DNA of 64,000 nt from a virus. Its lineage: Duplodnaviria > Caudoviricetes. A model generated the notes under the pieces. It did no database searches. It saw nothing but the letters and a program-made list of their open reading frames with translations, and was not told the origin of the DNA. Shown here in pieces: positions 896 to 64,000 of the stretch (positions are counted from its first letter, which is position 1; each line of letters starts with the position of its first letter). The translations under genes were made by a program, and so were the position numbers. The DNA lies in IMG/VR virus record IMGVR_UViG_3300037255_000025, positions 64,001 to 128,000 of that record. The stretch is one strand, 5' to 3'.

Positions 896-1387
896 ATGAC
901 GACGCTCAACGGTTACGACGACTGGAAGCTCGCCTCCCCGCCCGAACCGGGCGAACCGTTCGACGACGAGCAGCCCCCGCCGCTGCCACTCGGGTGGGAA
1001 GCGACCCCGAGTCCGCTCAGCGACACCGAGCCCCCGCCGACCCCCGCGACGTCGGGCGAAGTCCCCCGGGCGCTCGACTGGCGCCCGTTCGCCAAGGACG
1101 ACGGCTACGCATTCGCGGGCGCCGCCGACTTCGAACGCGGGACCGGGCCACGCGGGACCGGGCCACTCATCGCCGACATCGAGGTCGACGGTCGGGGCGG
1201 CATCGCGGTCCTGGACCGCAGCGGCTTGAGCCTGATCTGGTTCAACGCCAACCCCAAGGTCTCGTCGATCGACTCCGACGACCACGAGGCGCACGTTCAC
1301 CACCCGCTCGCCGCCCGCGCGGTCGCGCTGCTCCGCACGCCCACGACCTCGGCCGAGCTTCGCGCGCTCGGCGCCAACTTCAGCTAA
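896..1387 (+). CDS. Hypothetical protein
   Basis: ORF directly behind the promoter motif, GC-rich third positions. Confidence 0.7.
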   Translation: MTTLNGYDDWKLASPPEPGEPFDDEQPPPLPLGWEATPSPLSDTEPPPTPATSGEVPRALDWRPFAKDDGYAFAGAADFERGTGPRGTGPLIADIEVDGRGGIAVLDRSGLSLIWFNANPKVSSIDSDDHEAHVHHPLAARAVALLRTPTTSAELRALGANFS

Positions 1388-1410
1388 CCCTCAAGAAAGA
1401 AAGACAGAAA

Positions 1411-6277: not shown

Positions 6278-6532
6278 GTGTTCTACCTCCAGTTCATCGA
6301 GGACGAGGACAAGCGCGCGATGTACGCGCGCCTCGGCGGCTACGAAGGCGACGACTCGTATCTGACCCAGTACGACTTCATCACACGCGACTTCGCTCAG
6401 GCCCACCCCTACGCCTGCGTAGAAACCGCCGAGCACACCCTTCGGCGAAGCCGGTACTCCGACGTCCTCCGGGTCGTCCCCGAGGCCGACATCCTCCTGT
6501 CCCGCGAAGCTCGGCGGCAAGTACGAAGGTGA
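6278..6532 (+). CDS. Small protein, dispersed member of the 'ADELLEREA' family
   Basis: N-terminal FYLQ, C-terminal VVPEADILLSREARR. Confidence 0.7.
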   Translation: MFYLQFIEDEDKRAMYARLGGYEGDDSYLTQYDFITRDFAQAHPYACVETAEHTLRRSRYSDVLRVVPEADILLSREARRQVRR

Positions 6533-13955: not shown

Positions 13956-14465
13956 GTGCCGTTCATCCTGTGTAAGCGAAGAGACGCACATCGGTCGCTG
14001 TACCTACACACCTGGCCTACCCCAGGCCAAGTCGCAAAACTGGTCCAACGTTGGGAAGAAATGGGCCCATCCGCGGCAGCATCGGACCCCTACGGCTTTT
14101 GGATCCCCCTTTCAGACCCCCGCGAGCACCATCTCGCTCTTTTGGCGGACCGCTTCGTGTTGCGGAACACCGAGCACGGAGTCGACCTGGGTGAGCCCGG
14201 GCGCATCGGAGAGGGCTCTTGGGATGAATACGCCTGGTGGGGGGACCACCCCGGCGGCGCGAAAGGCTACAAGGACAAGGCCGCGCTCGTGGCGTTGGCC
14301 GAGGCTCGGTTCGCCGCCCTCCCCGAGGTGTTTCATACGTCGAAGGGTCGACCCGTCTGGTGGCCCAAGCTGAAGTCGGTCATCATCGTCGACCAGGCGC
14401 AGGAGATGCTCCGGTACGCCGCCAAGGGCCCGCGCGACGAGTGGGGCCGACCGATCGGGCGATAG
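13956..14465 (+). CDS. Divergent 'ADELLEREA'-family protein carrying a captured helicase segment
   Basis: MPFILCK... start, IIVDQAQEMLRYAA end; 14143-14200 is identical to 12372-12429. Confidence 0.65.
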   Translation: MPFILCKRRDAHRSLYLHTWPTPGQVAKLVQRWEEMGPSAAASDPYGFWIPLSDPREHHLALLADRFVLRNTEHGVDLGEPGRIGEGSWDEYAWWGDHPGGAKGYKDKAALVALAEARFAALPEVFHTSKGRPVWWPKLKSVIIVDQAQEMLRYAAKGPRDEWGRPIGR

Positions 14466-25300: not shown

Positions 25301-26104
25301 ATCGACGCGCTTCTAGCTCGCGCGGCTCCCAGCGAAACTACTCGTAGGTCGCTGAAGAATGGGATGGTCGTGTGGAACCTCGGTCGTCGCCTATCGACGC
25401 TTCTTATTGGGCTATGCCCAACAAGGACTCTCATGTTGGGGGCCATGCTCCGCCTCAATCGGCCCGCGCTTGACCGGCTGCACGAGGCAATGGTCCTTGG
25501 CGACCGGCATAAGCGGGGCATCTGCACGGGTCGGCGCGAGCAGGCCGAGGCGTTTCAGATCCTCTGTACACTCACCGGCGCGCACGCGTCCGTTACGTAC
25601 CGAGACATGAGCCGATACAAGCTAAAGAAGTACCCAAGCATGGGGAACATCCCCGTGACCGAGGGGTGCTGGTTGTCGGACACGTTGAACCGGAAGACTG
25701 TCCAGGTCACTGCGGGCCAGCGCCGCGAGGTCGTGGCGCGCGTCCCGGTGTGGTGCCCTGTCGTGCCTAACACGTTCTTCGTCGCGCGCCGGAGTGACCA
25801 CGTGTTCATCACGGGAAACTCGCCCATTCAAGGAGGGGCGAACGAGTTCCAGCTCGCGAGCCTCGTAGAGGCCGTCGAGTGGATCGAGGTTGAGGGCATC
25901 GAGCGGGACGTGAAGCTCCTGCTGCCCGTTCACGATTCGCTCCTGTTCGAGGTAAGAGCCGATATGGTGAACGACGTTGCCAGGAAAGTGCGTCAGATCA
26001 TGACGAGCCACGATAGCGGTGGCGTCGCGATGGATGTTGACTGTGAAGTTGGGCCCGCGTGGGGCTCGCTCTCGAAGTGGAAGGACCCCGATGTTGTCGC
26101 GTGA
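22337..26104 (+). CDS. polA: Family A DNA polymerase with N-terminal UDG-like domain, 3'-5' exonuclease and an intein
   Basis: CTRCEL...TRCRP...ACR (UDG family 4-like); VDVES, NVKFD, YNGRD exonuclease motifs; ADYKQAEFR, RSQTKSVVFGVLYG, N|SPIQG, VHDSL. Confidence 0.95.
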   Translation: MRDLPLYSALPVAAIEAEPSLDPDDRCTRCELSGLRRATDPETGEERVEPRDAKRPGRVCLGSDGGKNPRPGGVLVVVDTVTQDDDRPHPAGRVLSGVAGHMVRPLVSRWYPGPVTYAAATRCRPFHKLAVEHVEACRGYMARTLEDVRPERIIAMGSLAARSILGRSVQPNNVRTGYAYLLAGRYRDRPIPVYFVGAPKGAVDNRFLKTLLEQDIEYALTRPPPPLPPLDAVVRVVETAEDAEAAVAEMSAAPWCSVDVESAGQLFDPSFRLLCVTATPEREDEALSEDTWTWDEAALANPATRAPLARYLADPRARKCGANVKFDRSALVTNGFAVAGVDGDVRLWRKLLEAEAPADLATMVELVGMGGMKDEQKLAEAPAVDRITFGVHTERRLAKAKEADKKVGKLSAKAADGLAALADLDARLPHIAALVRDAGVESGAWAKAVVPDDTLLAYNGRDGVGTRRLLARLPRDLAINPQIDRIRRLVVDRAARAVARLEEWGVPVDMNALRAFDAHCTLSLRVTRERLDAEVGVDLNPGSPQQLAELLYRKLGFKPTKLTAGGQPSVDEEVLEKLRGKHPVVDLVLDHRKYAGLRSKYAGGMIPHVRPDGRVHCSILLDGAASGRASIKDPPLQQIPSNKRDPLYGKMARDVFAPVFGFLFLQADYKQAEFRVAAMLSQDPVMMADIAAGLDPHLATAKFISRVAWGISPDEVTDEHRSQTKSVVFGVLYGKTAGSLAAMFGCSREQAQKIVDAVMGRYKVLARWIKTNLREAQNTGYVWTQWAGEPARRRPLFDLGLRGDQNEGRRVHAANAATNCLDAETEALTRRGWVRGFDLRPDDVILTKNAATGALEWETMTDLRLFPDYEGPVVEFKSRSFSAVSTPNHRWLVETKSRQPGRRTCERTTRTLSPWGDDRIHRTGEYRPDVDSVLTPDEAELLGWFVTDGSIRKAHTVAGKQKNRRYSTTSARALIHQSGTANAANCSRIDALLARAAPSETTRRSLKNGMVVWNLGRRLSTLLIGLCPTRTLMLGAMLRLNRPALDRLHEAMVLGDRHKRGICTGRREQAEAFQILCTLTGAHASVTYRDMSRYKLKKYPSMGNIPVTEGCWLSDTLNRKTVQVTAGQRREVVARVPVWCPVVPNTFFVARRSDHVFITGNSPIQGGANEFQLASLVEAVEWIEVEGIERDVKLLLPVHDSLLFEVRADMVNDVARKVRQIMTSHDSGGVAMDVDCEVGPAWGSLSKWKDPDVVA
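24794..25819 (+). mobile_element. Intein (342 aa) with degenerate LAGLIDADG endonuclease in PolA
   Basis: CLDAETE...TPNHRW...LLGWFVTDGS...VWCPVVPNTFFVARR...ITGN|S. Confidence 0.93.
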
Positions 26105-41640: not shown

Positions 41641-42606
41641 GTGGATCCCGTGACTGGTATTGAGGCCCTGCCGGCGCCCGGGGATCCTGACGCGGTCTAC
41701 TGTTTTGACCTGAACGGATTTATCTGGCGGCTTGCTTCGAGTCCGTTCATGGCCGGCAAGGCCGCGCTGGGGTTCGCCCGGACGCTGCGTCGGATCCTGC
41801 GGGAGCGACGTCCGGGTTACCTGGCGGTTGCGGTCGACAACGCGCTGCCGACGTTCCGCCACGACCTGTTCCGGCAGCACTCGGCCATGTTGGGCGCCGA
41901 GGACTACAAGGCCGACCGGGTCAAGCGGATCAAGCCCCACGAGCGCGCGGCCGTGTTGGAGCAGATTCGCACGGCCCAGGAGCTGCTCGAAGACGCGTAC
42001 GGCGTCCGGTGCCTCGCGGCCCGGGGGTACGAGGGGGACGACGTCTTGGCGACGCTGGCCCAGCGCGGGCTCGACGCTGGGCTGAAGGTCGTGGTGGTCG
42101 CGTATGACAAGGACATGTTCCAGCTCGTGCAGCAGGACCGCTGTTGGGTCTGGGATGGCGAGGGTCGGGTGTTCGACGCCGCGGCGGTCGAGGCCAAGCT
42201 CGGGTGCGCGCCGGACCGCGTGGTCGACTTCATGTCGATCGTGGGCGACTCGACCGATGGCGTGCGGGGCGTCGTCGGGGCCGGACCGGTCGCGGCGTTG
42301 AAGGTCTTGGCGGCGTTCCCAACGCTCGATGCCGCGCTAGAGTCGGCGGAGCGTGGCGACCAGGACCACCCGCTGTGGCAGCAGGATCCGCGGCTCTGGG
42401 CCAAGGTGGTGTCGCAGCAGCGTCAAGCGCAGCTTTGCCGCCAGCTTGTGACGCTCGCGCGTGACGTCCCGCTGGCCGTGACGCTCCAGGAGCTGAGCCT
42501 GTCGGCCTCGATGGCGGTGGAGCTAGCGCTCCAGGACACGACGGCGTCCGAGGCCGACCCTGTTGACGGTCCCGAGGCGTTCGAGTGGTCGGTGGCGGAT
42601 GTTTAG
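41641..42606 (+). CDS. 5'-3' exonuclease (PolI N-terminal/FEN)
   Basis: TFRH...YKADR, GYEGDDVLAT, DKDMFQL, GDSTDGVRGVVGAGP. Confidence 0.93.
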   Translation: MDPVTGIEALPAPGDPDAVYCFDLNGFIWRLASSPFMAGKAALGFARTLRRILRERRPGYLAVAVDNALPTFRHDLFRQHSAMLGAEDYKADRVKRIKPHERAAVLEQIRTAQELLEDAYGVRCLAARGYEGDDVLATLAQRGLDAGLKVVVVAYDKDMFQLVQQDRCWVWDGEGRVFDAAAVEAKLGCAPDRVVDFMSIVGDSTDGVRGVVGAGPVAALKVLAAFPTLDAALESAERGDQDHPLWQQDPRLWAKVVSQQRQAQLCRQLVTLARDVPLAVTLQELSLSASMAVELALQDTTASEADPVDGPEAFEWSVADV

Positions 42607-42632
42607 TCGCACCGCGGGGTAAGGTGGACGAA

Positions 42633-43436
42633 GTGAGCATCCTATCTGACAGCGCGGTCCTGGTCGCCATGGACCAAAAGCGCATCGTGATCGATCCGTT
42701 CGACCGAGCGCGCCTGGGGTCAAACAGCTACGACGTTGCGCTCGGCCCGCGCCTGCTGGTCTACGAGACCGAGGAGCCGATCCTGCGTCCGGATGGCCGC
42801 GTTTTCTTCCCGGGCGCGCCGACCATCCTGGACGTCCGAAAGCAAAACCCGACGATGACGGTCGACATCCCGGAGTCCGGGATCGTCCTGCACCCCGGGC
42901 AGCTCTACCTGGGCTCGACGATTGAGCGGACCGAGAGCCACGACTTCGTGCCGGTGCTGTGTGGCAAGAGCAGCCTCGGTCGGTTGGGCCTTTCCGTGCA
43001 CGTTACCGCAGGATTCGGGGATGTAGGATTCTGCGGGGCATGGACGTTGGAGCTGATGGTCGTGCGCCCGCTCCGCATCTACGCCGGCATGCCGGTGGCG
43101 CAGATCGCCTGGCACACCGTCGAGGGTTTGGTTCTGCGACCGTACGGGTTCAAGCCGGGGGCGAAGTATGCGAACCAGTCGGCGGACCCGGTGGCGTCGG
43201 AGATGTGGCGGAACTTCGACGGCCTGAAGCCTGACGAGTGGCGACCGACCCCTAGCCGCGACCTTCCGCCGTTTAAGCTCAAGCCCGACGAGCGATCACA
43301 GCGCTGGCGCGACGCCGAGGCCCTGTGTGGTCCAGGCTACTGCCCACCCGACGCGCTCAAGATCATCGAGGAAGAGCAGGCCGCGTACGACGCCAAGCTG
43401 TCCGCAGTAAACCTCGACGGTGTGGGGCGGCCGTGA
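42633..43436 (+). CDS. dcd: dCTP deaminase
   Basis: ILSD, NSYDV, GKSSLGRLGL, TAGFGDVGFCG, TLEL, KY. Confidence 0.95.
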   Translation: MSILSDSAVLVAMDQKRIVIDPFDRARLGSNSYDVALGPRLLVYETEEPILRPDGRVFFPGAPTILDVRKQNPTMTVDIPESGIVLHPGQLYLGSTIERTESHDFVPVLCGKSSLGRLGLSVHVTAGFGDVGFCGAWTLELMVVRPLRIYAGMPVAQIAWHTVEGLVLRPYGFKPGAKYANQSADPVASEMWRNFDGLKPDEWRPTPSRDLPPFKLKPDERSQRWRDAEALCGPGYCPPDALKIIEEEQAAYDAKLSAVNLDGVGRP

Positions 43437-43681
43437 GCTACGTGGTCCGGATATCAAGCGGGTATGACCGCTTGGCCTCCTTTTACGTGGCCGACGACGG
43501 GAGGATCACGGCGCAATTCGAGGATGCTAAGGAGTACCCGACGGTGGAGGCGGCCGAGCGAACGACGTTCTGGGTTGCGCGTGTCTGGGTAGGTTATGAC
43601 GTACGTGTCGTAGACCTTGCGGAAGAACTCCTGACGCGAGAAGCCGCGCGTCAGGTTGGCGTCGAGGACCCGCTGTGGTGA
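43433..43681 (+). CDS. 'ADELLEREA' family small protein
   Basis: YVVR...AKEYPTVEAA...VVDLAEELLTREAAR. Confidence 0.75.
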   Translation: MSYVVRISSGYDRLASFYVADDGRITAQFEDAKEYPTVEAAERTTFWVARVWVGYDVRVVDLAEELLTREAARQVGVEDPLW

Positions 43682-43983
43682 GCGGCGCCGCGTGGTTGTT
43701 GGTGATGCCGCGACCCCCGGGGGTGAGCCGGCCTGCGCTGATGTGGTATGTTGGGGGCGCAACCTGGACGTACGACGCGCTCCGCGCGACCGCGTTCCCG
43801 ACCGCCGAGGCCGCCAAGGCCCAGGTCGACGCCGCCGCGATGGGGCTCGGCCCCAAGGTCGCGTTGCGCGTCCGGGCGGTGCTGTTCGCGGAGGTGCTGC
43901 GCGAGAACGAGGCGGTGCTGCGGCGTGCGGTGCCTGTCCTGACGGACCCACGGGGCGGTCCTGGGGGACGGGGCCGTGGTTAG
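43678..43983 (+). CDS. 'ADELLEREA' family small protein
   Basis: WLLV...ATAFPTAEAA...VLFAEVLRENEA. Confidence 0.7.
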   Translation: MSGAAWLLVMPRPPGVSRPALMWYVGGATWTYDALRATAFPTAEAAKAQVDAAAMGLGPKVALRVRAVLFAEVLRENEAVLRRAVPVLTDPRGGPGGRGRG

Positions 43984-44235
43984 GCGCCAAGGGCCTTTCG
44001 TCGTTCGGGTCGAGACCTGGGAGGAAGACAAGCCCGTGGCCTTCTGCCGTTGTCACCCGCGTGCTCGCGGCGAGGTCGCCTGACGCGTCACCCGTCGTTG
44101 GCCGCGGCGTTCGCGGTCGTTGGCCAAGCAAACGTTCTGGCCACCCGATACGCCCGAAAGTACGGGTGGACCCGCACCTCGCGCGTTGTCCCGCTCGCTG
44201 ATGCCCTGTTGGAGGTTGAGGCGGGCCTTGTCTGA
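43976..44235 (+). pseudogene. 'ADELLEREA' family member split by an apparent frameshift
   Basis: GTG 43976 frame (PFVVRVE...) stops at 44083; family tail VVPLADALLEVEA is in another frame. Confidence 0.55.
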
Positions 44236-44500
44236 GTTCTTGATCCGGTTACACAGAGACGGAGTCTGGCCGTACTACTGGACCCAGTATTACTTGGGTT
44301 GGGTGACAGAGCCCTCGCGGGCGACCCCCTACTTGGAGGAGGAAGCGCGCGAGGAACTCAAGCGCGTGATCCACTACTTGGAGGAGGACGCGCGCGAGGC
44401 ACTCAAGCGCGTGATCCGTCGGACAAGTCAGCCGAGTCTCGACGTCGTTCCGTTGTCCGACGCGATGTTGGACCGGGCCGCGCGCTATCCCAACCTCTAG
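44228..44500 (+). CDS. 'ADELLEREA' family small protein with a 45-bp internal duplication
   Basis: FLIRL...WVTEPSRATPY...VVPLSDAMLDRAAR. Confidence 0.72.
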   Translation: MSEFLIRLHRDGVWPYYWTQYYLGWVTEPSRATPYLEEEAREELKRVIHYLEEDAREALKRVIRRTSQPSLDVVPLSDAMLDRAARYPNL

Positions 44501-44742
44501 CCCAACGCCTCCTCTTCGAAGTGGCGCAGGCCGTGGAGGGACCTCGGCGCGCGCAACGCGGCGCTCGGGCGCGAGCGTGCGACCGCCGCCCAGACGGCCT
44601 CCGCGGCTTCCTCAGCCGCCGACAGGATCGGCGGCGGGTACTCGAGCGCGCTCAGGGGGGCCGTGACCCGCGTACGCCTCGCCGGGTACGGGGCCGCGTA
44701 GGGGTTGCAGATTTTGGCAGACTGGGGCACAAAGCTCATCAC
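44497..44742 (-). CDS. Possible small hypothetical protein
   Basis: GAGG upstream on the - strand; convergent overlap with 44500. Confidence 0.4.
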   Translation of the reverse strand: MMSFVPQSAKICNPYAAPYPARRTRVTAPLSALEYPPPILSAAEEAAEAVWAAVARSRPSAALRAPRSLHGLRHFEEEALG

Positions 44743-44767
44743 GTTGACCTCTTGCTCAGGTTGACCA

Positions 44768-44800
44768 GGCCCTCGGCGTTACCCGCGCCGGGGGCTTTCG
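44768..44800 (+). terminator. Hairpin, possible intrinsic terminator
   Basis: GGCCCTCGGCG-ttacccg-CGCCGGGGGCT followed by a short T tract. Confidence 0.4.
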
Positions 44801-44989
44801 TTCGTCTGAGAAGCTAAAACCGGGCCGGAGTCGCGGCCCTGGTAACTTAAGGCTTTTCTAGCAATTCTGCACGGCCGGTAGACGCAAAAACGCATCACAC
44901 GTCCTACAATTGCGCATCGGGGCGATCAACCCCGGGCGTAAGGGCGGCGCGGGTTCCGAAGCGTCGCCCGCGGGGGTAAGGATCCGGGC

Positions 44990-45238
44990 GTGGGCGAACA
45001 GCATGTCGGCGCGTGGATCGTGAAAGTAGTCGGCGGACACGTAGACGTGTCCGCGGCGTGGGTGGTGCGCATCGGCGCGATGACAGGGGCCAGCCGCGTC
45101 ACGACCGAGCCCGGGAAGGCGGTGTTCACCACCCGAGCCACGGCGCTCGACTGGATGAAGGCAAACCACGCGTCCGCGGGGTGCGCGGTTCCGCTGGCTG
45201 ATGAGCTGCTTGAGTGCGAGGCCCGACGGACGCCATGA
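44990..45238 (+). CDS. 'ADELLEREA' family small protein
   Basis: AWIVK...VFTTRATA...AVPLADELLECEARR. Confidence 0.78.
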   Translation: MGEQHVGAWIVKVVGGHVDVSAAWVVRIGAMTGASRVTTEPGKAVFTTRATALDWMKANHASAGCAVPLADELLECEARRTP

Positions 45239-45498
45239 AGCAAGCGTGGATCCTGCGGGAGTTGCCTGACGAGCCTGACGTGGCGCTCTCGTCGGTCTGG
45301 CGGAGACCTACGCTCTACGTAAGCGTGTACGGTGACGATTGCGCGGTCTTCGCCCTTTCGGCAGCAAAGGTGTTCCGGTCGGCAGCTTGCGCAGAGCGTC
45401 ACCGTCGTCGTCTTTTGATGCCCGATCGGTGGACCGTGGTTCCGTTCGCGGACGCGATGCTCGATTACGAGGCGGCGCGCCATGAGGCGGCCCGATGA
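45235..45498 (+). CDS. 'ADELLEREA' family small protein
   Basis: AWILR...AKVFRSAACA...VVPFADAMLDYEAAR. Confidence 0.78.
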   Translation: MKQAWILRELPDEPDVALSSVWRRPTLYVSVYGDDCAVFALSAAKVFRSAACAERHRRRLLMPDRWTVVPFADAMLDYEAARHEAAR

Positions 45499-45758
45499 GC
45501 CGCGATGCTGGCTGGGTCCTGAAGTCGCGGATGACGGCGGAGTACTTTGTGGCTGGGGTTCGGACGGGAGGTACTTGGTACACCGGGGTTCGGACGGGAG
45601 GTGCTTGGTACACCGTCGCGCCCTACTGTTCGATGGGCCGCGTGTTCTGGACGGAAGCCGACGCCCAGGAGGCCCGCGGTCGCCTCGACGACCCGGAGAC
45701 GTGGATCGTGGTCCCGTTGGCGGATGAACTGCTGGAACAGGAGGCCCGACGCCGATGA
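45495..45758 (+). CDS. 'ADELLEREA' family small protein with a 30-bp duplication
   Basis: WVLK...VFWTEADA...WIVVPLADELLEQEARR. Confidence 0.8.
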   Translation: MSRDAGWVLKSRMTAEYFVAGVRTGGTWYTGVRTGGAWYTVAPYCSMGRVFWTEADAQEARGRLDDPETWIVVPLADELLEQEARRR

Positions 45759-46045
45759 CCTGGGTCTTGGTCTGTAGACGCCCCGGCGCGCAACGCGGCG
45801 CGCAACGCGGCGCGCAACGCGGCGCGCAACGCGGCGATACTTATTACGCCCGGGACCTGCGTTCGCACGGTGAAGACTGGCCATACACGCTCATGCTCGA
45901 CTTCGCCCAGGAGTTCTCGACCGAGCAAGCCGCGCTCGCGCATCGGATAGAGCACCCCAGCGATGATCACGAGCTTGTGGTGGCGGGTCCTTGGATCGTG
46001 GTTCCGCTGGCGGATGAGCTGCTGGAACGGGAGGCGCGGCGCTGA
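45755..46045 (+). CDS. 'ADELLEREA' family small protein with (GAQR)4 repeat
   Basis: WVLV...AQEFSTEQAA...WIVVPLADELLEREARR. Confidence 0.8.
   Translation: MTWVLVCRRPGAQRGAQRGAQRGAQRGDTYYARDLRSHGEDWPYTLMLDFAQEFSTEQAALAHRIEHPSDDHELVVAGPWIVVPLADELLEREARR
45785..45836. repeat. 12-bp tandem repeat (GGCGCGCAACGC)x4
   Basis: Read directly from the sequence. Confidence 0.95.
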
Positions 46046-46323
46046 TGAGCTGGGTCCTGAAGCAGGCGGCGTTCCACGACGGCCGTGTACCTAAGGAGCC
46101 CCCCGCGCCGTACTACCTGGGCAGGACTCGCCCCGTGGCTCAGGACTCCGCGGCGGCGTGGTACACGAGTCCTGGGGACGCGATCGAATTCACGACCGAG
46201 CAGGATGCACGGGACTTCGTTCAGGAGCGGGGGATCCTCGGGGAGTGGCGACCCGTTGATCTCGCGGGTGAACTGCTGGCGCGCGAGGCTGCGGGCCCGA
46301 GCGGCAAGCCGGACCGCGGATGA
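46045..46323 (+). CDS. 'ADELLEREA' family small protein
   Basis: WVLK...AIEFTTEQDA...VDLAGELLAREAA. Confidence 0.8.
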   Translation: MSWVLKQAAFHDGRVPKEPPAPYYLGRTRPVAQDSAAAWYTSPGDAIEFTTEQDARDFVQERGILGEWRPVDLAGELLAREAAGPSGKPDRG

Positions 46324-46330
46324 GGACCCG

Positions 46331-46555
46331 ATGCCCTGGATCCTGAAGCAGGACAGACCCTGGCCCTGGTACGTGTGGCGCGCGTTCCCAGCGCTCGTCG
46401 CCAACGGGGCGTACCACATGACCGATAGCCCCGGGAGGGCGCTCGCGTTTGACACGTGGGCCGAGGCCGACCGCTTCCGTAGCCCCAGTCTCGACCTCCA
46501 TTGTGTCAACCAGGCGGACGAGACGCTGTCGTGGGCCGCGGCCCAGCACCCGTGA
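46331..46555 (+). CDS. 'ADELLEREA' family small protein
   Basis: MPWILK...ALAFDTWAEA...VNQADETLSWAA. Confidence 0.75.
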   Translation: MPWILKQDRPWPWYVWRAFPALVANGAYHMTDSPGRALAFDTWAEADRFRSPSLDLHCVNQADETLSWAAAQHP

Positions 46556-46571
46556 AGGCCGCGAAGCCCGT

Positions 46572-46817
46572 GTGGATCGTGAGATTCGGGTCGCGACGAT
46601 CGACGATGTGGGCCTGCCTTGCTGGCTTTACTTGTACATGGACGCCAACGACGACGTTGAGGCGACGAGCTGGCTTGACCTCGCGACCGAGTTCCCTCGT
46701 TCGGGGGAGGCGCGCCGGCTTCTGAAGCGGGGGGGTCTAGGCCCCGTGGGCTGGGAACCCGTGGACCTCGCGGACGAGATGCCTGAACACGCGTTGGAGC
46801 ACGAGTCGCGGCGCTGA
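46572..46817 (+). CDS. 'ADELLEREA' family small protein (true start may be GTG 46552 with a frameshift)
   Basis: ATEFPRSGEA...VDLADEMPEHALEHES. Confidence 0.6.
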   Translation: MDREIRVATIDDVGLPCWLYLYMDANDDVEATSWLDLATEFPRSGEARRLLKRGGLGPVGWEPVDLADEMPEHALEHESRR

Positions 46818-46844
46818 GTCGCGGCGCTGAGTCGCGGCGCTGAG
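46803..46844. repeat. 13-bp tandem repeat (GAGTCGCGGCGCT)x3 spanning a stop codon
   Basis: Read directly from the sequence. Confidence 0.95.
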
Positions 46845-47080
46845 CAGAAACCTGTCTGCGGGGCGTTCGGGCTCAACGGCGTAGGCGCGCTCTAGCGTGC
46901 GTCTCCGTGGAGCCTCCTTGGGAACCCGGGCCAGTATATCGCCGGACGCGCCAGAAGCGTCTCGTGTGGCCGCGACGCCCCCCGGGCGCCCGCTCGGAGC
47001 TTCCTCGGAGCTTCCTCGGAGCCTCCTCCCGCGCCCCACGCTTGCGGCAAGGGCTGCCGCGCCGGTACAATGCCCTCTCC

Positions 47081-47935
47081 ATGCCGAGAAAGTTCCGTCC
47101 CCCGGTCGACCCCGCGCTGCGCCAGAAGCGCCCCGCGCTGCCCCGTACGCGCGCGCTCTACGATGAGTATGTCGAGCAGTTCCGCCGGGATAGCCGCATC
47201 GCCCGGGTCGCCGCCCACTTCGGCGTCACGTGGACGACGGCCCGGATCGTCTACCACGACGGGTGGGTCGGGATCCCCTGGGCCCGGCCGATCAAGAAGG
47301 TCCTGGAGCAGGACGTCTTCGAGGAGGAGAACCGGTCCCGGGAACAAGCCCGCCGCGACCGCGCCCGGGAGCTAGAGGCCCGGGAAGCCGAGCAGGAAGC
47401 GAAGCGCGAGGCCCTGAAAGCCGAGCGACAACGGGCCCAAAACGAAGAGGCCACGCTGGTCACCAGCACCCGCCGAGGCCTCCAGCAGCTTGCCTCAGTC
47501 GTGCTGGCGCTGAGCCCCGCGGCGGCCCAGATGGTCCGGGTCGTGATGCGCGAGGCGTTCGACGAGACCGTCGGGCCGGACGGCAAGCCCCAGTACACGC
47601 CCAAAGCCATCCCGACGATCAAGCCCGACGCCGCGATGAAGTACCTGAACGCCATGGCCCAGATGGCGGCCCGCGTGACCGTCGCGGGCGTGGATCTTTC
47701 GCACTTTGCCGCCGAACGCCGTGGGCCGGAGCCCACGGTGGGCGCGGTTGAGATGACGGAGGAGGAGAACGAGGAGGCGTTGCAGCACGCCCGCTCCATC
47801 CTGTGGAGCCTCGACGAGGAGGCCCGGCTGAAGCGGGAGGACGCGTACCCGCGGCCCGAGGCCCCGGCGGTCGCGCGGGAGGACGCCCCGGACAAGCCCT
47901 CGATCGGGCCCCAAAACCCGGGCGAAGTGCACTAA
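47081..47935 (+). CDS. HTH-containing protein, possibly terminase small subunit
   Basis: IARVAAHFGVTWTTAR...DGW, then a coiled coil; TTGCGG/TACAAT promoter upstream. Confidence 0.5.
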   Translation: MPRKFRPPVDPALRQKRPALPRTRALYDEYVEQFRRDSRIARVAAHFGVTWTTARIVYHDGWVGIPWARPIKKVLEQDVFEEENRSREQARRDRARELEAREAEQEAKREALKAERQRAQNEEATLVTSTRRGLQQLASVVLALSPAAAQMVRVVMREAFDETVGPDGKPQYTPKAIPTIKPDAAMKYLNAMAQMAARVTVAGVDLSHFAAERRGPEPTVGAVEMTEEENEEALQHARSILWSLDEEARLKREDAYPRPEAPAVAREDAPDKPSIGPQNPGEVH

Positions 47936-48000
47936 AGGTATATACCTTTGCTTGCGGGTATATACCTTTGCTTGCGGGTATATACCCGAAGGTATATACC
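47934..48000. repeat. Four GGTATATACC palindromes (candidate operator array)
   Basis: At 47937, 47957, 47977 and 47991; the first three have a 20-bp period. Confidence 0.9.
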
Positions 48001-48008
48001 CCGGATTC

Positions 48009-48425
48009 ATGGCAGCTAAACAGAAGCGACTGTTGGTTTGGTCGGCGAGGGCAGAGGCGGCCCTTCGTCGCGCGGAAACGGAGCGGAGGGCCTCCTTGGG
48101 TCGGGAGCTTCTCCCGCGCGAGAAGTCTGCAAGCTCCGTTGTGCTCTGGGCCCTTGAGTCGGTCGGGTCTCCGCGACCTACTATCCGTGAGCGTGTCCGC
48201 GAGAAGGTTGTGCAGGCTCATGTGTATCTTGAGGGCGACCCCGTGGGCGAGCAACACGACGCTGCCGTCGCCATGGCTAGGCTGCGCGAGATCGAGGCGC
48301 ACCCTGAGCGCCTCGTGAGGGGCGAAGAACTGGGGAAGCTCCTTGATGGGCTGGCGGAGTTCCCCGAGCCCTTGGTCGAGTACGACGACCCTCGGGTTGC
48401 CGCGAAGAAGGCCCGGCGCGGGTAA
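48009..48425 (+). CDS. Possible ribbon-helix-helix-type regulator
   Basis: KQKRLLVWS strand, helix, then SASSVVLWALE helix; follows the palindrome array. Confidence 0.5.
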   Translation: MAAKQKRLLVWSARAEAALRRAETERRASLGRELLPREKSASSVVLWALESVGSPRPTIRERVREKVVQAHVYLEGDPVGEQHDAAVAMARLREIEAHPERLVRGEELGKLLDGLAEFPEPLVEYDDPRVAAKKARRG

Positions 48426-48435
48426 GGACCGGGGC

Positions 48436-48768
48436 GTGCCCTGGATCATCAAGCTCACGGAGCTGGCCACGACGCACTGGCCCTCCCCGGGACGGACGGC
48501 GTACCTGCGGGCGTGGCCCCAAGGCCCTGTTGGGTGGCGCGCCGTCCAGATGACGCACATCGTCGCGACCGACGGCGCGGCCGTTTGGGTGCCAGAGCTG
48601 AGCCTGGCGAAGGTGTTCGCCACCGAGGAGATCGCGCGCGCCGCGGCGGACCGATGCCGGTCCAAGATCGGGGAGGCGCGGTTTGTGCGGCTTGAGTTCG
48701 CGGACTGGGCGGGGGAACTGTTGGAGCGAGAAGCCGCCCACGCTGGGGGTAAGGGACCGCGAACGTGA
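48436..48768 (+). CDS. 'ADELLEREA' family small protein
   Basis: VPWIIK...AKVFATEEIA...ADWAGELLEREAA. Confidence 0.78.
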   Translation: MPWIIKLTELATTHWPSPGRTAYLRAWPQGPVGWRAVQMTHIVATDGAAVWVPELSLAKVFATEEIARAAADRCRSKIGEARFVRLEFADWAGELLEREAAHAGGKGPRT

Positions 48769-49988
48769 AGATCCTCCGAGCGTACAAGACCGAGCTGGAC
48801 CCCACGGTCTCCCAGACCGAGCAGCTCCTACAGCACGCCGGTTGCGCTCGCTGGGCTTACAACTGGGGTCTCCGAAGGAAGATCGAGTCCTACGAAGCTA
48901 CGGGCAAGAGTCCGTCCTGGGTGGATCTCAACCGCGAGCTGAACGTGATCAAGAAGCTCCCCAAGGAAGCCGGCGGGGTCCCGTGGATGTACGAGTCCTC
49001 GAAGTGTGCCCCGCAGGAAGCGCTCCGAAACCTTGATCGAGCCTTTGAGGGCTTCTTTCGTCGGTGTAAGAGCGGCTCGAAGCGGAAAGGCTTCCCTCGG
49101 TTCAAGTCTCGTAAGCGGGGCATCGGTAGCTTCAAGTTCAGCGGAACGATTCATGTAGAAGAGCGACGGGTTCAGCTTCCCCGTCTCGGGAAGATCAAGC
49201 TCAAGCAACGCGGGTACCTCCCGACCTCGGGGGTGAAGATCCTCTCAGCTTCGGTCTCGGAGCGAGCGGGGCGGTGGTTCGTTTCGATCCAGGTTGAACA
49301 GGGGCTACCGGATCCCGCACCCAAGCCCACGTCGGTTCTCGGGATCGACGTTGGGATCAAGAATCTCGGGGTCACCAGCGAAGGCGAGGTCTTCTCCAAC
49401 CCGAAGGCGCTCCTGGCAGCGCAGAAGCTTCTCCGAGCGCGTCAGAAGTCTCTCGCGAGAAAGACCAAAGGATCGAACAACAGGAGGAAAACGGCCGCTA
49501 GGGTCGCCCGTCTACACGCTAGGATCTCCAATATCCGGAGGGATTCGATCCACAAGATGACGACTGCGATCACCAAGCAGGCGTCGGTTCTCGTGATCGA
49601 GGATCTCAACGTCCTTGGGATGCTGAGAAACCACTGTCTCGCCCGGTCTCTGTCGGATGCCTCCCTCGGGGAGATCCGCCGGCAGCTCACCTACAAGAGC
49701 AAGTGGCGCGGGGTCGAGCTTCGGGTAGCGGACCGCTTCTATCCAAGCAGCAAGAGGTGCTCGGGGTGTGGAGCGGTCAAGGTCTCGCTCTCGTTGGCCG
49801 AGAGGGTCTACCGATGCGAGCTTTGTGGTCTCGTGATCGATCGAGACCTGAACGCTGCCCTCAACTTGAAAGATTTGGCCGGGAGTTCCCCGGTGCAAGC
49901 CTGTCGCCCTGGAGGCTCTGGTGCTGCTCTTACGAGCGGTACGAAACCTCTGGTTGGGCAGGAACCGAACCGGGAGGCTTCCTCGTGA
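48765..49988 (+). CDS. tnpB: TnpB RNA-guided endonuclease (IS605/IS607 OrfB), no adjacent transposase
   Basis: RAYKTELDPT, ARWAYN, GFPRFK, GIDVG (RuvC-I), IEDLN (II), CSGC/CELC, DRDLNAA (III). Confidence 0.96.
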   Translation: MKILRAYKTELDPTVSQTEQLLQHAGCARWAYNWGLRRKIESYEATGKSPSWVDLNRELNVIKKLPKEAGGVPWMYESSKCAPQEALRNLDRAFEGFFRRCKSGSKRKGFPRFKSRKRGIGSFKFSGTIHVEERRVQLPRLGKIKLKQRGYLPTSGVKILSASVSERAGRWFVSIQVEQGLPDPAPKPTSVLGIDVGIKNLGVTSEGEVFSNPKALLAAQKLLRARQKSLARKTKGSNNRRKTAARVARLHARISNIRRDSIHKMTTAITKQASVLVIEDLNVLGMLRNHCLARSLSDASLGEIRRQLTYKSKWRGVELRVADRFYPSSKRCSGCGAVKVSLSLAERVYRCELCGLVIDRDLNAALNLKDLAGSSPVQACRPGGSGAALTSGTKPLVGQEPNREASS

Positions 49989-52139: not shown

Positions 52140-55100
52140 CTAGACGGGCGTTCGCCTAGCCAAACCACTGATGCTCCAACCAGTGTACTGGCCCGCCTTG
52201 ATCTGCGCCCAAATCTCGTCGTCGACCACCCTACAGGCGAGCAACCAAGTCCCCTTCGCGACCTTACGGCCGTTGATGATCAGGTCACAGGGTGCGATGT
52301 AACTTTCTACCGGTCGCAAATGCCCGTTCACGAGGACCTTATGCTGGAGATCGATGTTCCGGTAGTCCTCCATCCAGCGGTGCGCCGACTTGGCGATCTC
52401 ATCGGCGTCGTAAGTGTCGAATTGCGCGTCCACCGACGGGGACGGCTTCAGCACAATTCCAAGGATGTACCGCTGCTCTACTGGAGCCGCGTCGTCGGCT
52501 TTCCCGACCTCGACGATCTCGACCTCGCGCTCGTCGGCCTTACGGACGTGGCGCTCGTTGATGAACCCTGGGTCGCCCGTACCCTCGGCTGCGGGCACGA
52601 CCGGGATGAACGGCCGCGTCATCGAGTCCGCGGAGTCGCTGGCCTTCTGGGCGAGACCTTCGAGTGAGCGGTCTGGCGTCGGCGTGTTGCCCTCGGCGGC
52701 GCGCAACGCGGCGCGCACGTCAGGACCCGCGGCCTTTTGGGCGAACTTCCCGTCGTCCTCGCGTGGCTGGTCACCGCCAGACCCCGCGCCCTTGTCGTCC
52801 GCCTTTGAGCCGGTTCCGTCGGGCTTCGCCACCGCGACCTTCTCGGCGTGAGCCTGGCCCGCGTCGAGTTCTCCCTGGAGGTCGGCCCAAGCCTTCGGGT
52901 CGTCGATGTCCGAGTGGAGCCGGTCGAGCGCGTCGTGGGTCTTCTCGGCTGCGGTCTTGTGACCCTCGGCGGCCTCTTGGTGGCGCTCAACGCCCGCCTT
53001 GTCGCCCGCCTCGGCGGCCGCGACGGCGGCGCGCGCGTGCTCCGCCGCGGCTTGCTCGTGGTCCCCGGCGACCTTTGCGGCCGCGGCGGGGTCGGGCTTC
53101 GCGGCCTTGTCCCCGTTGAGCTTGTCTCCGCCGGGCTTCTTTCCGTCAGCGGCGATCTGCCGCGAGGTCGTGCCCGCGCGATCGGAGGCGTGCTGCGAGA
53201 CGATGTCGAGTGCGTTGGACACGACGTTCAGCGTCGAGTGGAGCAGGCTCCGGGCATCGGTGATCTGTGCGGCCTCGTGCAGCAGGTCTAGCCCATGGCC
53301 CGCGCGGGGTGCGGCTCCGTTGGCCGTGCTACCGCTTCCCGAAGCGCGCGGGGTCTTACCGCCCGAAGCCGCCCGCGGGGCCCGGTCCTCGCCCGACAGG
53401 GGCGCACGGCGGTCGTGTTCGCTCACGCGCGCGCCGGTCGAGCGATGGTGCTCGTCGACGTGGACCGACGCCTTCGCGACCGCGGCCTCGTTGATGTCGT
53501 CGAGGAGCTTGCGCGCGGCAGCCGAGCACGACGCCTTCACGTCCGCCGGCAGGTTTGACTGCGGGATCCGCGCGAGCGCGTTGCGCACGTGGGCCGCGTC
53601 GGGCTTGCCGTCCGGACCCCGGACCGGGAAGTGCCGGAGCGTCTTGGGCGTCGTCTTGCCGTCGACCTTCTCGCCGCCGGACTCGACGTGGAGGAACGCG
53701 GAGTCCGGAAGGTCGTTTACCTCGGCAGAACTCCACTCGGCTTTGCGAACCTCGGCGAGGTCGAGCGCCGCCGCCACTGAGTCCTCAAACGCGTCCGCCA
53801 GGAGCGCCTTCGTGACCTCGGCGGGTTCGAGACCCAACAGGGCCTTCACCATCTGCACCGACGTGGTCTGGATGCACTTCAAAGTCGCCGAGGGCTCGTG
53901 TTCTTCGAAGGCTGCCGCCGCCTTGTCGGCGTCCTCGAAGCCAAAGAGGATTGCGTACTCGGAAAACTGGCTGTCGGCTTTCTGGTGTACGGCCCATTGG
54001 GCGCGAGTATCGTTCGCCTTCGGCCCGAGGAAGACGTCCAGGCCCGTCCCGACATCCCCCGCGATCCCGGGGATGAATCCGTAGTCGAACTTGTAGACCA
54101 AGTCGCCCAATTCACTCTTCTGAACGAACCCCGCGGGGCGGTCGACGTGGACCGGGACGCCTTGGTAGTCGACCTTCTTGATGACGGGACCGCGGGGTGC
54201 GCGTCCCGTCGGAAGTGGCTGGCCGGGGGCGTCGTAGCCCTCGGTGTGCCCCTCCTCGCCGACGACCTTCTGCGATACCGCGTAGCCCACGGGGGTGTCG
54301 CGCCGGACCGTGTAGCCCGCGCCGGGCTCGGCTCCGCCGACGCGCTCGTCAGGACCGGGAACCTGCGGGCTGTTCTTCGCCGCGGGCTCGATGCCGTCGT
54401 CCTCATCCGACGGGAGCTTCGCTCCCTTACCGGGCGCGGGAGGCCGCGGCTTTCCCGGAGCCTTCGGGGTCCTGGCCGCAACGCCGCTCTTCGGCGGCCC
54501 CGCCGTGGTGTCCGCGGGGTCCTCCCCAGGCGGGGCCTTGCCGTCGGGACCCGTCTGGTCCTCGCCCTGTCCGGCGAAGTCGCCCAGGCCCGCGCCTTCG
54601 GCGGAGTCCGTCGGCGCAACGCCACTCGTCAGGTCGTCCCAGTCCTTGTCGGTCATGGACGCCAACGCGTCCTGGATGCCGGCGAGGATCGTGTTGGTGA
54701 ACAGCTCGGTCCCGTCGTCATCGCCGAGGTCGGCCTTGAACGTGACGCCGATGGCACGCTGGGCCGCGTGCTTCGCCAAGTGCTCGACCGTGTGTTCGGC
54801 CGCGTGAGCCGCCAGGTGGTGCGCCAGGGCCTCGGCAAAGTGCGGGACGGCGTGCTCGATCGCGGACCCAACGGCGTGTCCGACGCCGGGCAACGCGGCA
54901 CCAACGGCGGCGAACGCGAGCTTGACCGCGACCTTGAGCGCGACGGTCCGCATCGCGGCCTTCTGCTCTGGCGTGACTTCTTTGCCCGTAACGGCGCTCT
55001 TGAGCCCCTGAGCCGCGGTCTTGACCAATCCGACCTCGTGCATGACCGCGCCCTTGAGCGCCTGGGGCGCGCCCTTGATCTTCTCGACCGCGGACGCCAG

Positions 55101-55631
55101 CGCGCCCTTGACCCCGGCGGCGAGCTTCGCCGCGCCCCCGGCGGCGCGCCACGCCGCGACCTCGGCCTTGTTCGGCTGGGTCAACGGGGTCGCGCGCGGG
55201 TCGGGTGAACCGTTCGGCTTGGCGCCCGCGGGACCCGCGTCGGGCTTGTCCCCAGCCGGCTTGGCGCCCGCGGCCCGACCCTTAGGCTCCTTCGCGGGGT
55301 TCACGTCGGTGTACTGGTTGTGATGCGCCTTGCTGACGTCCCAGTCCTTCAGCAGGCGCGTGAACTTGTCCTCGTGCGCCTGGTCCGGGACCAGCATTCC
55401 ACCCGAGGCCAAGTCGCTCTCGCCCACCGGACCCCCGGCGAGCTTGTGGAGCGACTGGACCGCCGACTTGGCCGCGCGGGCGAGCCGGTCCTGGGCAGCG
55501 CTTTGCGCCATCGCGATCTCGGCCGCGAGGTCACCCCGCAGGCTCCGCACGACCTGGCCCGCCCGGGCCGACAGCGCCGCGGGCGTGATCTCGGATTCCT
55601 CACGCGGCGTGAGCTTCGTCGGCAGGGGCAT
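52140..55631 (-). CDS. Multidomain head protein: phage PPase-like domain, DUF6582-like domain, C-terminal XkdF-like prohead serine protease
   Basis: YKFDYGFIPG...LDVFLGP; VNDLPDSAF...RHFP...HVRNALARI; QRYILGIVLKP, DLQH, ESYIAP, KGTW, WAQIKAGQYTGWSISG. Confidence 0.85.
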   Translation of the reverse strand: MPLPTKLTPREESEITPAALSARAGQVVRSLRGDLAAEIAMAQSAAQDRLARAAKSAVQSLHKLAGGPVGESDLASGGMLVPDQAHEDKFTRLLKDWDVSKAHHNQYTDVNPAKEPKGRAAGAKPAGDKPDAGPAGAKPNGSPDPRATPLTQPNKAEVAAWRAAGGAAKLAAGVKGALASAVEKIKGAPQALKGAVMHEVGLVKTAAQGLKSAVTGKEVTPEQKAAMRTVALKVAVKLAFAAVGAALPGVGHAVGSAIEHAVPHFAEALAHHLAAHAAEHTVEHLAKHAAQRAIGVTFKADLGDDDGTELFTNTILAGIQDALASMTDKDWDDLTSGVAPTDSAEGAGLGDFAGQGEDQTGPDGKAPPGEDPADTTAGPPKSGVAARTPKAPGKPRPPAPGKGAKLPSDEDDGIEPAAKNSPQVPGPDERVGGAEPGAGYTVRRDTPVGYAVSQKVVGEEGHTEGYDAPGQPLPTGRAPRGPVIKKVDYQGVPVHVDRPAGFVQKSELGDLVYKFDYGFIPGIAGDVGTGLDVFLGPKANDTRAQWAVHQKADSQFSEYAILFGFEDADKAAAAFEEHEPSATLKCIQTTSVQMVKALLGLEPAEVTKALLADAFEDSVAAALDLAEVRKAEWSSAEVNDLPDSAFLHVESGGEKVDGKTTPKTLRHFPVRGPDGKPDAAHVRNALARIPQSNLPADVKASCSAAARKLLDDINEAAVAKASVHVDEHHRSTGARVSEHDRRAPLSGEDRAPRAASGGKTPRASGSGSTANGAAPRAGHGLDLLHEAAQITDARSLLHSTLNVVSNALDIVSQHASDRAGTTSRQIAADGKKPGGDKLNGDKAAKPDPAAAAKVAGDHEQAAAEHARAAVAAAEAGDKAGVERHQEAAEGHKTAAEKTHDALDRLHSDIDDPKAWADLQGELDAGQAHAEKVAVAKPDGTGSKADDKGAGSGGDQPREDDGKFAQKAAGPDVRAALRAAEGNTPTPDRSLEGLAQKASDSADSMTRPFIPVVPAAEGTGDPGFINERHVRKADEREVEIVEVGKADDAAPVEQRYILGIVLKPSPSVDAQFDTYDADEIAKSAHRWMEDYRNIDLQHKVLVNGHLRPVESYIAPCDLIINGRKVAKGTWLLACRVVDDEIWAQIKAGQYTGWSISGLARRTPV

Positions 55632-62661: not shown

Positions 62662-62692
62662 ACGCGGGCCCCTTACCCGCCGCGGCGCGCGT

Positions 62693-64000
62693 TCATTCGC
62701 CCGAGGGCGTCACCCACTCAAGTAGCTTGGCCACCGAGACCTGGACCTTCGTGATGTTGTGGCGCTTGAAGTAGGCCGCGAGCGCGTCATCACCGCCTGG
62801 CTCGGCCGCGGCTCCACCGGAGCCCACTGAATTGGGGAGCGGCGCGCCCGCGGGGGCTGTCTTGGGTTCCTGGTCGTCGCCGGGCTTGCTCGCCCCCGGC
62901 GGGGGTCCGCCCGGAGGGGCCGAACCGTCGCCGCCAGGCTCTCCCGGTGCCCCCGGAGCGCCGCCCGCGGGGGGTGTGGCCGCGCCTCCGTCGAGGCCCA
63001 TGATGCCCTGGAGCACGAGAGGAAATGGCGCGTCGGCCCAAGGGGTGTCCAGCTTCTTGAACTCCTTGTTGAGCGCTTCGCTCGCGGCGGCCCGGACCTC
63101 GTTGGTCGTCAGGCCCCCGGCGGTCGCCAACTGGGTCACGAGCGTAACCAACTGCGTCGGGTCCGAGGCGGGCGCGGAGTTGGTCTTGAACGTCCAGTAC
63201 CGGATGCCCATGTCGGCCAACACGCGGCGGTTCATCACGTGGTCGAACTGTTCCCGGAGCGGCTCGAAGACCTGCTGCTCCGCGAACTGGAGCACCGCCT
63301 GGGCCTGGGCCCGGTTGACCTCCTGCGATACGCCGCGGAGCAGCTCAGGCAGCCGGAACTGGCTGCCGATCTTGCTCGTCCCGTTCTTCTCGTACTCCTG
63401 GAACAGGGCATCCTTGAGCTGGGCCTCCGTGAGGGGTCGCAGCTCCACCTTGACGCGCGACGCGCTCGACATCGCCTGGGCCGGGTTGGACTCGGCCTCG
63501 ATCAGCAGGACCGAATGGAAGTTGGCGCGGCCCTGGATGGTCTCCTTGAGATGGTTCTTGATGAGGTCCACGGCCCCCGCCTTGAGCGAGCCGCCGCTCA
63601 CGAGGATGGCCATCGGCGGGATGCACTTCTGGTCGAAGTAGCTGAAGTTGATTTCCTCGGACGCGCGCAGCCCCAACACGTTCATCGTCGCCCCGACCCA
63701 GCGCGGGATCCCGTACGGTCCGATGGGGCTGAAGACCGACCACCACAGGATCTCTGTGGCCTCGACCGCTAGCTCGCCCTCCTTGTCCTTCAACTCCTCG
63801 GGCGACGCATAAAAGTTGCCCGTCTTGGCCGACAAGATGCGGGTGTCGCCGAACTCCTTGAAGTACACGGCGATCAACCCGTTCACCAACTGCACGAACG
63901 TCCTGAAGCGCCGCGGGACCGGTACGGTCGTGTACTTCAACGGGCTCATCTTCTGGGGCGTGTCGACCAGCACGTGCTCGATGTGGATCGGACGCAGCCG
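62693..64000 (-). CDS. Portal protein (PBSX/HK97-like), N-terminus beyond the window
   Basis: YFKEFGD, YGIPRW, NFSYFD, DALFQEY, FRLPELLRG, NRA, FEPL, LTTNEVR. Confidence 0.88.
   Translation of the reverse strand, partial: RLRPIHIEHVLVDTPQKMSPLKYTTVPVPRRFRTFVQLVNGLIAVYFKEFGDTRILSAKTGNFYASPEELKDKEGELAVEATEILWWSVFSPIGPYGIPRWVGATMNVLGLRASEEINFSYFDQKCIPPMAILVSGGSLKAGAVDLIKNHLKETIQGRANFHSVLLIEAESNPAQAMSSASRVKVELRPLTEAQLKDALFQEYEKNGTSKIGSQFRLPELLRGVSQEVNRAQAQAVLQFAEQQVFEPLREQFDHVMNRRVLADMGIRYWTFKTNSAPASDPTQLVTLVTQLATAGGLTTNEVRAAASEALNKEFKKLDTPWADAPFPLVLQGIMGLDGGAATPPAGGAPGAPGEPGGDGSAPPGGPPPGASKPGDDQEPKTAPAGAPLPNSVGSGGAAAEPGGDDALAAYFKRHNITKVQVSVAKLLEWVTPSGE

Follow-up and report, generated by a model that had tools for sequence, protein, structure and literature searches.

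Tandem arrays of paralogous genes, whose copy number changes through homologous recombination and which are linked to interaction with the host, are known from the multigene families of African swine fever virus and from the gene 'accordions' of the poxviruses. The stretch of DNA analysed here, called the window throughout, comprises bases 64,001-128,000 (64,000 nucleotides, nt) of the IMG/VR record IMGVR_UViG_3300037255_000025, the genome of an uncultivated soil phage (169,748 bp, ~68% GC), and it holds an array of small paralogous genes that can be likened to those of the eukaryotic viruses in gene layout and changing copy number, although these belong to a different virus realm and the proteins are unrelated. 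Among phages, Bacillus phage G carries ~35 copies of a zinc ribbon, which represent a lineage-specific expansion (Iyer et al. 2021, PMC7824862). Similar to the zinc ribbons of phage G, the family of the window consists of dozens of copies of a small domain in one large phage, the function of which has to be read from context. Unlike them, it is an alpha/beta domain without metal ligands, its copies stand in tandem with overlapping start and stop codons, and its turnover is documented between close relatives. A further described system is that of the phage-type polyvalent proteins, for which 2H and InPase domains are reported to be specific. These proteins are likely to be packaged and to act at an early stage of infection (PMC5512222), and unexplained domains of theirs are also found as solo genes (Iyer et al. 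2017, PMC5512222).

The array of the window and its dispersed copies form a genuine family, which is larger than was given in a preliminary description made from the sequence of the window. Profile searches of the whole genome returned 27 matches, 13 in the window, 11 in a second array (array 2, tight copies on the minus strand at genome 165.7-168.7 kb) and three as single copies at genome 7.2, 18.7 and 149.9 kb. The open reading frames (ORFs) that had been listed for the array of the window (array 1) all lie in the frames given for them except the one at 43976, which is out of frame, the real feature there being a remnant at 44050-44235. The layout reported for the listed ORFs, with a common head, an A..F.T...A block and a common tail, is present in them, and they are mostly coupled as had been described, since the stop of one gene mostly overlaps the start of the next by 1-8 nt throughout the array, as it also does where the preceding dCTP deaminase gene meets the first member (m01). 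As regards the two dispersed copies that had been proposed, the one at 6278 is clear (expectation value, E, 9e-9), the profile having been built from 12 arrayed members only with this copy (match 6278-6529) left out of its construction, while that at 13956 is borderline (E 0.02-0.09) though both head and tail are present. The GC content of the members at the second and third codon positions (GC2 0.39-0.59, GC3 0.71-0.88) is like that of the Pfam-supported genes, and long antisense ORFs do not have this gene-like pattern. When 38 members were searched against Pfam and PHROG none gave a match above threshold, the best hits (E 0.003-0.3) being scattered over unrelated families. The earlier view of a diversified family of paralogs is supported, and neither database gives this family a name. 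The family is a lineage-specific expansion of one unnamed single-domain protein in a large phage, that is, a new family and an instance of a known phenomenon.

Fold and conservation of the domain

In the preliminary description the middles of the proteins had looked unrelated by eye and the C-terminal helix constant. The middles are homologous, since a leave-one-out profile from which the tail columns were removed still found 18 of the 23 members at E < 1e-3, and conserved residues are present in every secondary-structure element. Among 38 members, which fall in two clades, the residues that vary least occur along the whole chain, namely a [VIL][VIL][KR] motif in strand 1, a Tyr and a Trp in strands 2 and 3, respectively, the A..F.T...A block and, in the tail, V, D/P, L, A, L/M, L and A. 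The best kept are A57 (37 of 38 members), A48 (36 of 38), L80 (35 of 38) and W38 (32 of 37). The paralogs share only 20-40% identity while these core residues persist, and most of the variation falls in the loops that join strands 1-3 and in the one that leads from helix 1 to strand 4. An AlphaFold2 model of member m07, made from an alignment called A2, gave the order strand-strand-strand-helix-strand-helix with a predicted local distance difference test (pLDDT) of 86 and a predicted template modelling score (pTM) of 0.76, and an AlphaFold model made from the independent alignment A4 of distant members gave the same order of elements (pLDDT 84, pTM 0.73). The structure prediction that had been proposed as a check thus gave one order of elements for both alignments, and the two alignments match each other by hhalign with a probability of 98.5% (E 1.8e-15). 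Judged from the profiles and the models, the members consist of one homologous domain of ~80 residues and not of a constant tail attached to unrelated bodies.

In the models the 'VVPLADELLEREA' tail is strand 4, with D/P at the start of helix 2, followed by the A-x3-L-x3-A face of helix 2. The conserved residues of the tail are mostly hydrophobic or small, which suggests that they belong to the core of the fold, and if the tail is read in this way its constancy would be explained without a common docking partner. Proteins of the distant clade end a few residues past 'LL' and do not retain the acidic residues of the tail. Co-folding of m07 as a homodimer from A2 gave a score of 0.00, which bears neither way. 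The likeness of the tails as DNA, which had been pointed out earlier, is genuine, positions 45702-45769 and 45992-46059 being 87% identical over 68 nt. When all pairs of tails were compared, 39% of the codons at identical residues were the same, whereas codon usage would lead one to expect 44%, and the DNA likeness therefore follows from the conserved protein sequence, given the high GC content of the genome. A role of the tail as a selected DNA recombination anchor is ruled out by the same test.

We also searched for known families and folds. The family profile gave no match among PDB sequences, and Foldseek and VIA searches of the PDB with both models gave nothing above noise. The top structure score in the PDB was Z 4.9, to a neck protein of phage 812, and 3.1 with the second model. 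Matches in BFVD and the ESM Atlas were only uncharacterised phage proteins, together with a weak lead to DUF2849. As regards anti-CRISPR and other characterised anti-defence proteins, the highest score was Z 3.0-3.2 with chain 8g9s_A, from an entry for type I-C CRISPR-Cas3, and this is within noise. The N-terminal domain of HicB-type antitoxins presumably has a similar order of elements (three strands, helix, strand) and a 'T..eA'-like start of the helix. Foldseek, however, related HicB to the family only at E 2.6-5.5 and a template modelling score of ~0.2, and the family is without the DNA-binding C-terminal domain of HicB. A general DNA-mimic role was ruled out, being unlikely because charges vary widely among the members (isoelectric points 4.5-11.1).

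Turnover of the arrays and distribution of the family

Three relatives were compared with the window genome, and the comparison of array content that had been suggested earlier revealed differences in gene presence and absence. Relative L085 is missing m03, m04, m09 and m10 and has two m08-like genes, while L004 is missing m08 and has two m09-like genes. At the DNA level the 5' part of m09 aligns with L004:1399 and its 3' part with L004:1650, the switch falling in the AIEFTTEQDARDF block. A second chimera is found in L085, where the first ~45 nt of genome gene 168273-168500 are joined to the rest of gene 168019-168267. The tails had been proposed as anchors for shuffling, and recombination between paralogs does reshape the array, as these two chimeras attest, but both crossovers that could be mapped fall outside the tail, within the first helix and close to the N-terminus, and nothing points to selection on the tail as DNA. 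In-frame repeats in the loops of m04 (two units), m07 (two units) and m08 (4.4 units) have fewer units in near-identical strains. Two copies elsewhere in the genome, at 166728 and 149929, are without the tail, which their orthologs P0014 and P0042 possess. Adjacent members are more alike (mean score 48.8) than all pairs (39.7; permutation p 0.0002), as would be seen if the array had grown by local duplication.

The DNA identity to L085 is 82% at the centre of array 1 and 92-97% in its flanks. The ratio of nonsynonymous to synonymous substitution rates (dN/dS) against L085 is ~0.9-1.3 for m05, m06 and m11, 0.19-0.59 for m02, m07 and m08, and 0.05-0.23 for flanking genes. Other known means of varying a gene set were also considered. 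No RVT_1 match, and hence no reverse transcriptase, was found in the genome, by which a diversity-generating retroelement is ruled out. Switching through silent cassettes was rejected too, since all members are complete genes, each provided with a start, and the tails show no more conservation as DNA than that of the protein entails.

The array-2 genes of L085 come immediately after m12, the last member of array 1, on the same strand. The window genome has three copies of TnpB, with 88-92% protein identity, at window 48765-49988, at genome 168780-169748 continuing at 1-462, and at genome 159718-160938. Member m12 abuts the first of them, and an inverted copy spans the contig ends beside array 2. 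The ~55 kb between the two inverted TnpB copies is inverted relative to L085. The position of the array-2 genes in L085, together with the TnpB-flanked inversion in the window genome, makes arrays 1 and 2 the parts of one ancestral array of about 20 or more members. The ends of the contig (genome 1-210 and 169539-169748) overlap by 210 nt at 99% identity, so that the record is circular or terminally redundant, although its IMG/VR label is linear.

Searched exhaustively with the profile, a set of 1.84 billion representative proteins gave only 48 matches at E <= 0.001, ~35 of which are short proteins of the phage itself or of related uncultivated phages. Relatives of the family are restricted to a clade of high-GC uncultivated phages, some of which carry longer arrays, plus one phage contig of 41% GC on which a single copy is coupled behind a 5'-3' exonuclease gene. 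One of the relatives, QGNH01001869.1, is a viral population contig of the Stordalen Mire permafrost-thaw study, and the relatives occur in metagenomes of peat and permafrost. On the distant metagenome contigs L093 (1-10304) and L094 (1-6009), with 72% GC, nearly every gene is a member, two-domain members of 145-176 aa occur and the arrays are denser than in the window phage. Member m07 alone as query found no related loci among viral contigs. Searches of the phage collection with the array DNA and with the polymerase protein returned no close phage. The relatives of TnpB, taken as a clue to the host, reach 56% identity at best and are scattered over Chloroflexota, archaea and others, and are therefore uninformative for host inference. 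At L090:10001-10255 a member (P0034) lies on the opposite strand between a Gp80-like gene and a BubE/lysozyme gene; the DNA of the window phage does not align to this stretch, which suggests that members also insert singly, like morons.

The rest of the matches of the exhaustive search belong to long proteins, which contain the strand-strand-strand-helix-strand core as many as seven times over (6-7 repeats). Four of these repeat proteins carry a 2H phosphoesterase domain, Acb1-like in one of them, and one of the four also has an InPase domain. Compared by hhalign with an alignment of 45 repeats, A2 gave a probability of 95.3% and A4, which was not used in selecting the repeats, 95.8% (E ~1e-8). 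The core is thus homologous between the repeats and the window members, whereas the latter are free-standing and have an extra C-terminal helix. No Pfam LPD model matched members or repeats at E up to 0.001-0.01, and a PHROG search of the repeat proteins gave no function.

Gene neighbourhood and positions of the features

Array 1 is surrounded by a replication and nucleotide-metabolism block, comprising genes for a family A DNA polymerase, helicases with inteins, ThyX, an RRXRR/HNH protein, an AAA_28 protein, a 5'-3' exonuclease and dCTP deaminase. The order of dCTP deaminase gene and array is also present in L085. Inteins, one with an HNH endonuclease, lie within two large proteins of the block (window 994-3054, 11087-13858 and 22337-26101), and the family A polymerase additionally bears a UDG-superfamily domain. 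A 1163-aa protein at window 52143-55631 on the minus strand combines InPase and XkdF-like protease domains, an architecture of polyvalent type, and the family profile detected no repeat of the family in it. No transfer RNA genes were found in the window.

The motif RAAS-N15-TAAGG, two copies of which end 8 nt before the starts of members, has seven occurrences in the window, where shuffled sequence would give 0.46 (plus strand, 18275, 21277, 31087, 44958, 48404 and 56100; minus strand, 62671-62694). It may serve as a phage promoter, as a ribosome-binding element or in both ways; a sigma-70 promoter scan of the region gave 0 sites. Within the array lie three genes that are not members. The minus-strand ORF at 44497..44742 and the genes at 46907..47935 and 47952..48425 have no Pfam or PHROG match, and the strong conservation of the latter two contrasts sharply with the fast-changing paralogs on either side of them.

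Table 1. Members of the family and other features of the window, with positions in the window; E values are those of the family profile unless a Pfam model is named, and identities and dN/dS refer to L085.
Feature	Position	Strand	Evidence and remarks
Dispersed member, 84 aa	6278..6532	+	E 9e-9; just after a vWA/DUF2201 gene
Probable divergent member, 169 aa, long insert	13956..14465	+	Borderline, E 0.02-0.09; head PFIL.K, tail IIVDQAQEML
dCTP deaminase gene	42585..43436	+	Pfam DCD, E 5.8e-34; stop overlaps m01 start
Member m01, 82 aa	43433..43681	+	E 4.6e-22; ortholog 84% identical
Member m02, 102 aa, variant tail VLFAEVLRENEA	43675..43983	+	E 1e-19; ortholog 98% identical, dN/dS 0.19
Member m03, 61-aa remnant, N-terminally truncated	44050..44235	+	Covers profile positions 37-82 only
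Member m04, 90 aa, 45-nt in-frame tandem duplication	44228..44500	+	Profile match; variant P0022 without duplication
Small non-member ORF, 81 aa, interrupts array	44497..44742	-	GC3 0.89; called in L004 and L085
Motif RAAS-N15-TAAGG	44958..44981	+	Ends 8 nt before m05 start
Member m05, 82 aa	44990..45238	+	E 2e-20; ortholog only 65% identical, dN/dS ~1.1
Member m06, 87 aa	45235..45498	+	E 7e-25; ortholog 64% identical, dN/dS ~0.9
Member m07, 87 aa, 30-nt in-frame duplication	45495..45758	+	Profile match; variant P0002 without duplication; modelled member
Member m08, 96 aa, 12-nt x4.4 repeat (AQRG)	45755..46045	+	Profile match; variant P0050 has two units
Member m09, 92 aa, recombinant of two adjacent paralogs	46045..46323	+	Both paralogs intact in L004
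Member m10, 74 aa	46331..46555	+	E 9e-20
Member m11, 81 aa	46572..46817	+	E 5e-16
Non-family gene within array, 284-342 aa	46907..47935	+	99% identical, dN/dS 0.05
Non-family gene within array, 109-157 aa	47952..48425	+	99% identical
Motif RAAS-N15-TAAGG, further copy	48404..48427	+	Ends 8 nt before m12 start
Member m12, 110 aa, final one before inversion breakpoint	48436..48768	+	E 8e-23
TnpB (IS605-type)	48765..49988	+	Pfam OrfB_IS605, Cas12f1-like_TNB and HTH_OrfB_IS605; at the array 1/array 2 breakpoint

Possible function and its alternatives

The scale of the expansion, the variation of loops on a fixed core, the fast turnover and the kinship with repeats of conflict type together argue for reading the expanded family as a repertoire of small binding or inhibitor modules in phage-host conflict, a proposal drawn from sequence comparison which we regard as evenly poised between right and wrong. 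What the comparison shows is one co-directional array behind the dCTP deaminase gene in a close relative, split in the window genome by an inversion between TnpB copies, and an array that evolves by birth and death, whole genes being gained or lost, adjacent paralogs fused, loop repeats varied, and heads or tails lost. On the proposed reading the paralogs would probably be made together with the replication genes, their differing loops would give them different specificities for host or competitor proteins, and the distant kinship to the repeats of the 2H (Acb1-like) and InPase giant proteins would point to a role in conflict. A more elaborate form of this proposal, in which unequal crossing-over and slippage in the loops of one recombination-diversified scaffold yield new specificities against host defence or competitors, the same scaffold is strung together in packaged polyvalent proteins and the whole is a phage counterpart of the multigene families of large eukaryotic viruses, resting on a fold that lacks a solved relative, we put forward only tentatively, as possible though doubtful.

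Several observations weigh against a repertoire of conflict modules. Sequence and fold searches gave no named relative and no match to a solved structure, the members share no uniform DNA-mimic signature (isoelectric points 4.5-11.1), and the link to conflict is an association that runs through distant repeats (hhalign 95-96%). The timing of expression is deduced from gene position alone, and that the tail residues are buried is deduced from the kind of residue kept at these positions, not from contacts in the models. A single genome pair and short genes underlie the dN/dS values near 1, which may reflect non-orthologous replacement or relaxed constraint and not positive selection. Moreover, orthologs in array 2 are 92-100% identical, so that not every member evolves fast.

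Among the alternatives, the preliminary description had favoured an adaptor whose constant C-terminal helix docks on a common partner (an ATPase, a protease or RNA polymerase) while a variable face recruits different targets. The tail is indeed the longest contiguous conserved block, and in the window clade the semi-conserved acidic residues D77, E78, E81 and E83 would, on a helical wheel, face away from the A76/L80/A84 stripe. However, the best-kept residues of the tail (V, D/P, A, L, L, A) read as strand core, helix start and packing face, the acidic residues are not retained in the distant clade, where the protein ends shortly after 'LL', the last helix is modelled confidently as part of the domain and the body holds equally conserved residues throughout, and we consider an adaptor of this kind unlikely. 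We think it similarly improbable that the members are small virion-associated or ejected proteins, or helpers of packaged giant proteins, with the solo genes being free-standing versions of the polyvalent-protein repeat. The arrays are found outside the structural genes, in the block for replication and nucleotide metabolism, where they are coupled to dCTP deaminase, and the InPase protein of the window shows no repeat of the family. The tandem occurrence of the core domain in 2H/InPase proteins that are predicted to be packaged (PMC5512222), the 1163-aa XkdF-protease/InPase protein that the window phage itself encodes and the member lying between the Gp80-like and lysozyme genes of one relative all speak for such a location.

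The coupling to the dCTP deaminase gene, which the window phage shares with L085, and to the 5'-3' exonuclease gene in the 41%-GC contig, would also be in keeping with factors accessory to DNA replication or to nucleotide metabolism, which might regulate the exonuclease or dCTP deaminase or act as their partners. But a housekeeping partner would have no need of ~27 diverged copies that are rapidly gained, lost and fused, and the dispersed copies stand in unrelated contexts, which makes this explanation quite improbable. Least credible to us is a largely neutral or selfish expansion, in which duplicated small genes persist without useful function and decay. Truncated or tail-less copies (m03 and those at genome 166728 and 149929), dN/dS near 1 in some members and the unstable copy number among relatives would fit such decay. 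Against this, paralogs that are only 20-40% identical retain the core residues while the likeness of their tail codons does not exceed what codon usage alone would give, orthologs can be recognised from one relative to another, several of them with dN/dS of 0.19-0.59, and the family is retained in several phage lineages.

In all, ~7 kb of a 170-kb phage genome is spent on one unnamed domain, and related contigs consist almost entirely of it, which amounts to a large genomic investment in a function that nobody has described. The comparison with three relatives details how a phage array changes, by fusion, deletion, loop repeats and a split through an inversion mediated by insertion sequences. 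The solo members represent a separately expressible, free-standing form of the unexplained repeats in the 2H/InPase proteins of polyvalent type. With its compact scaffold of ~80 residues, confidently modelled, without a clear solved relative and with the variation mapped to the loops, the family is suited to structural and binding studies.

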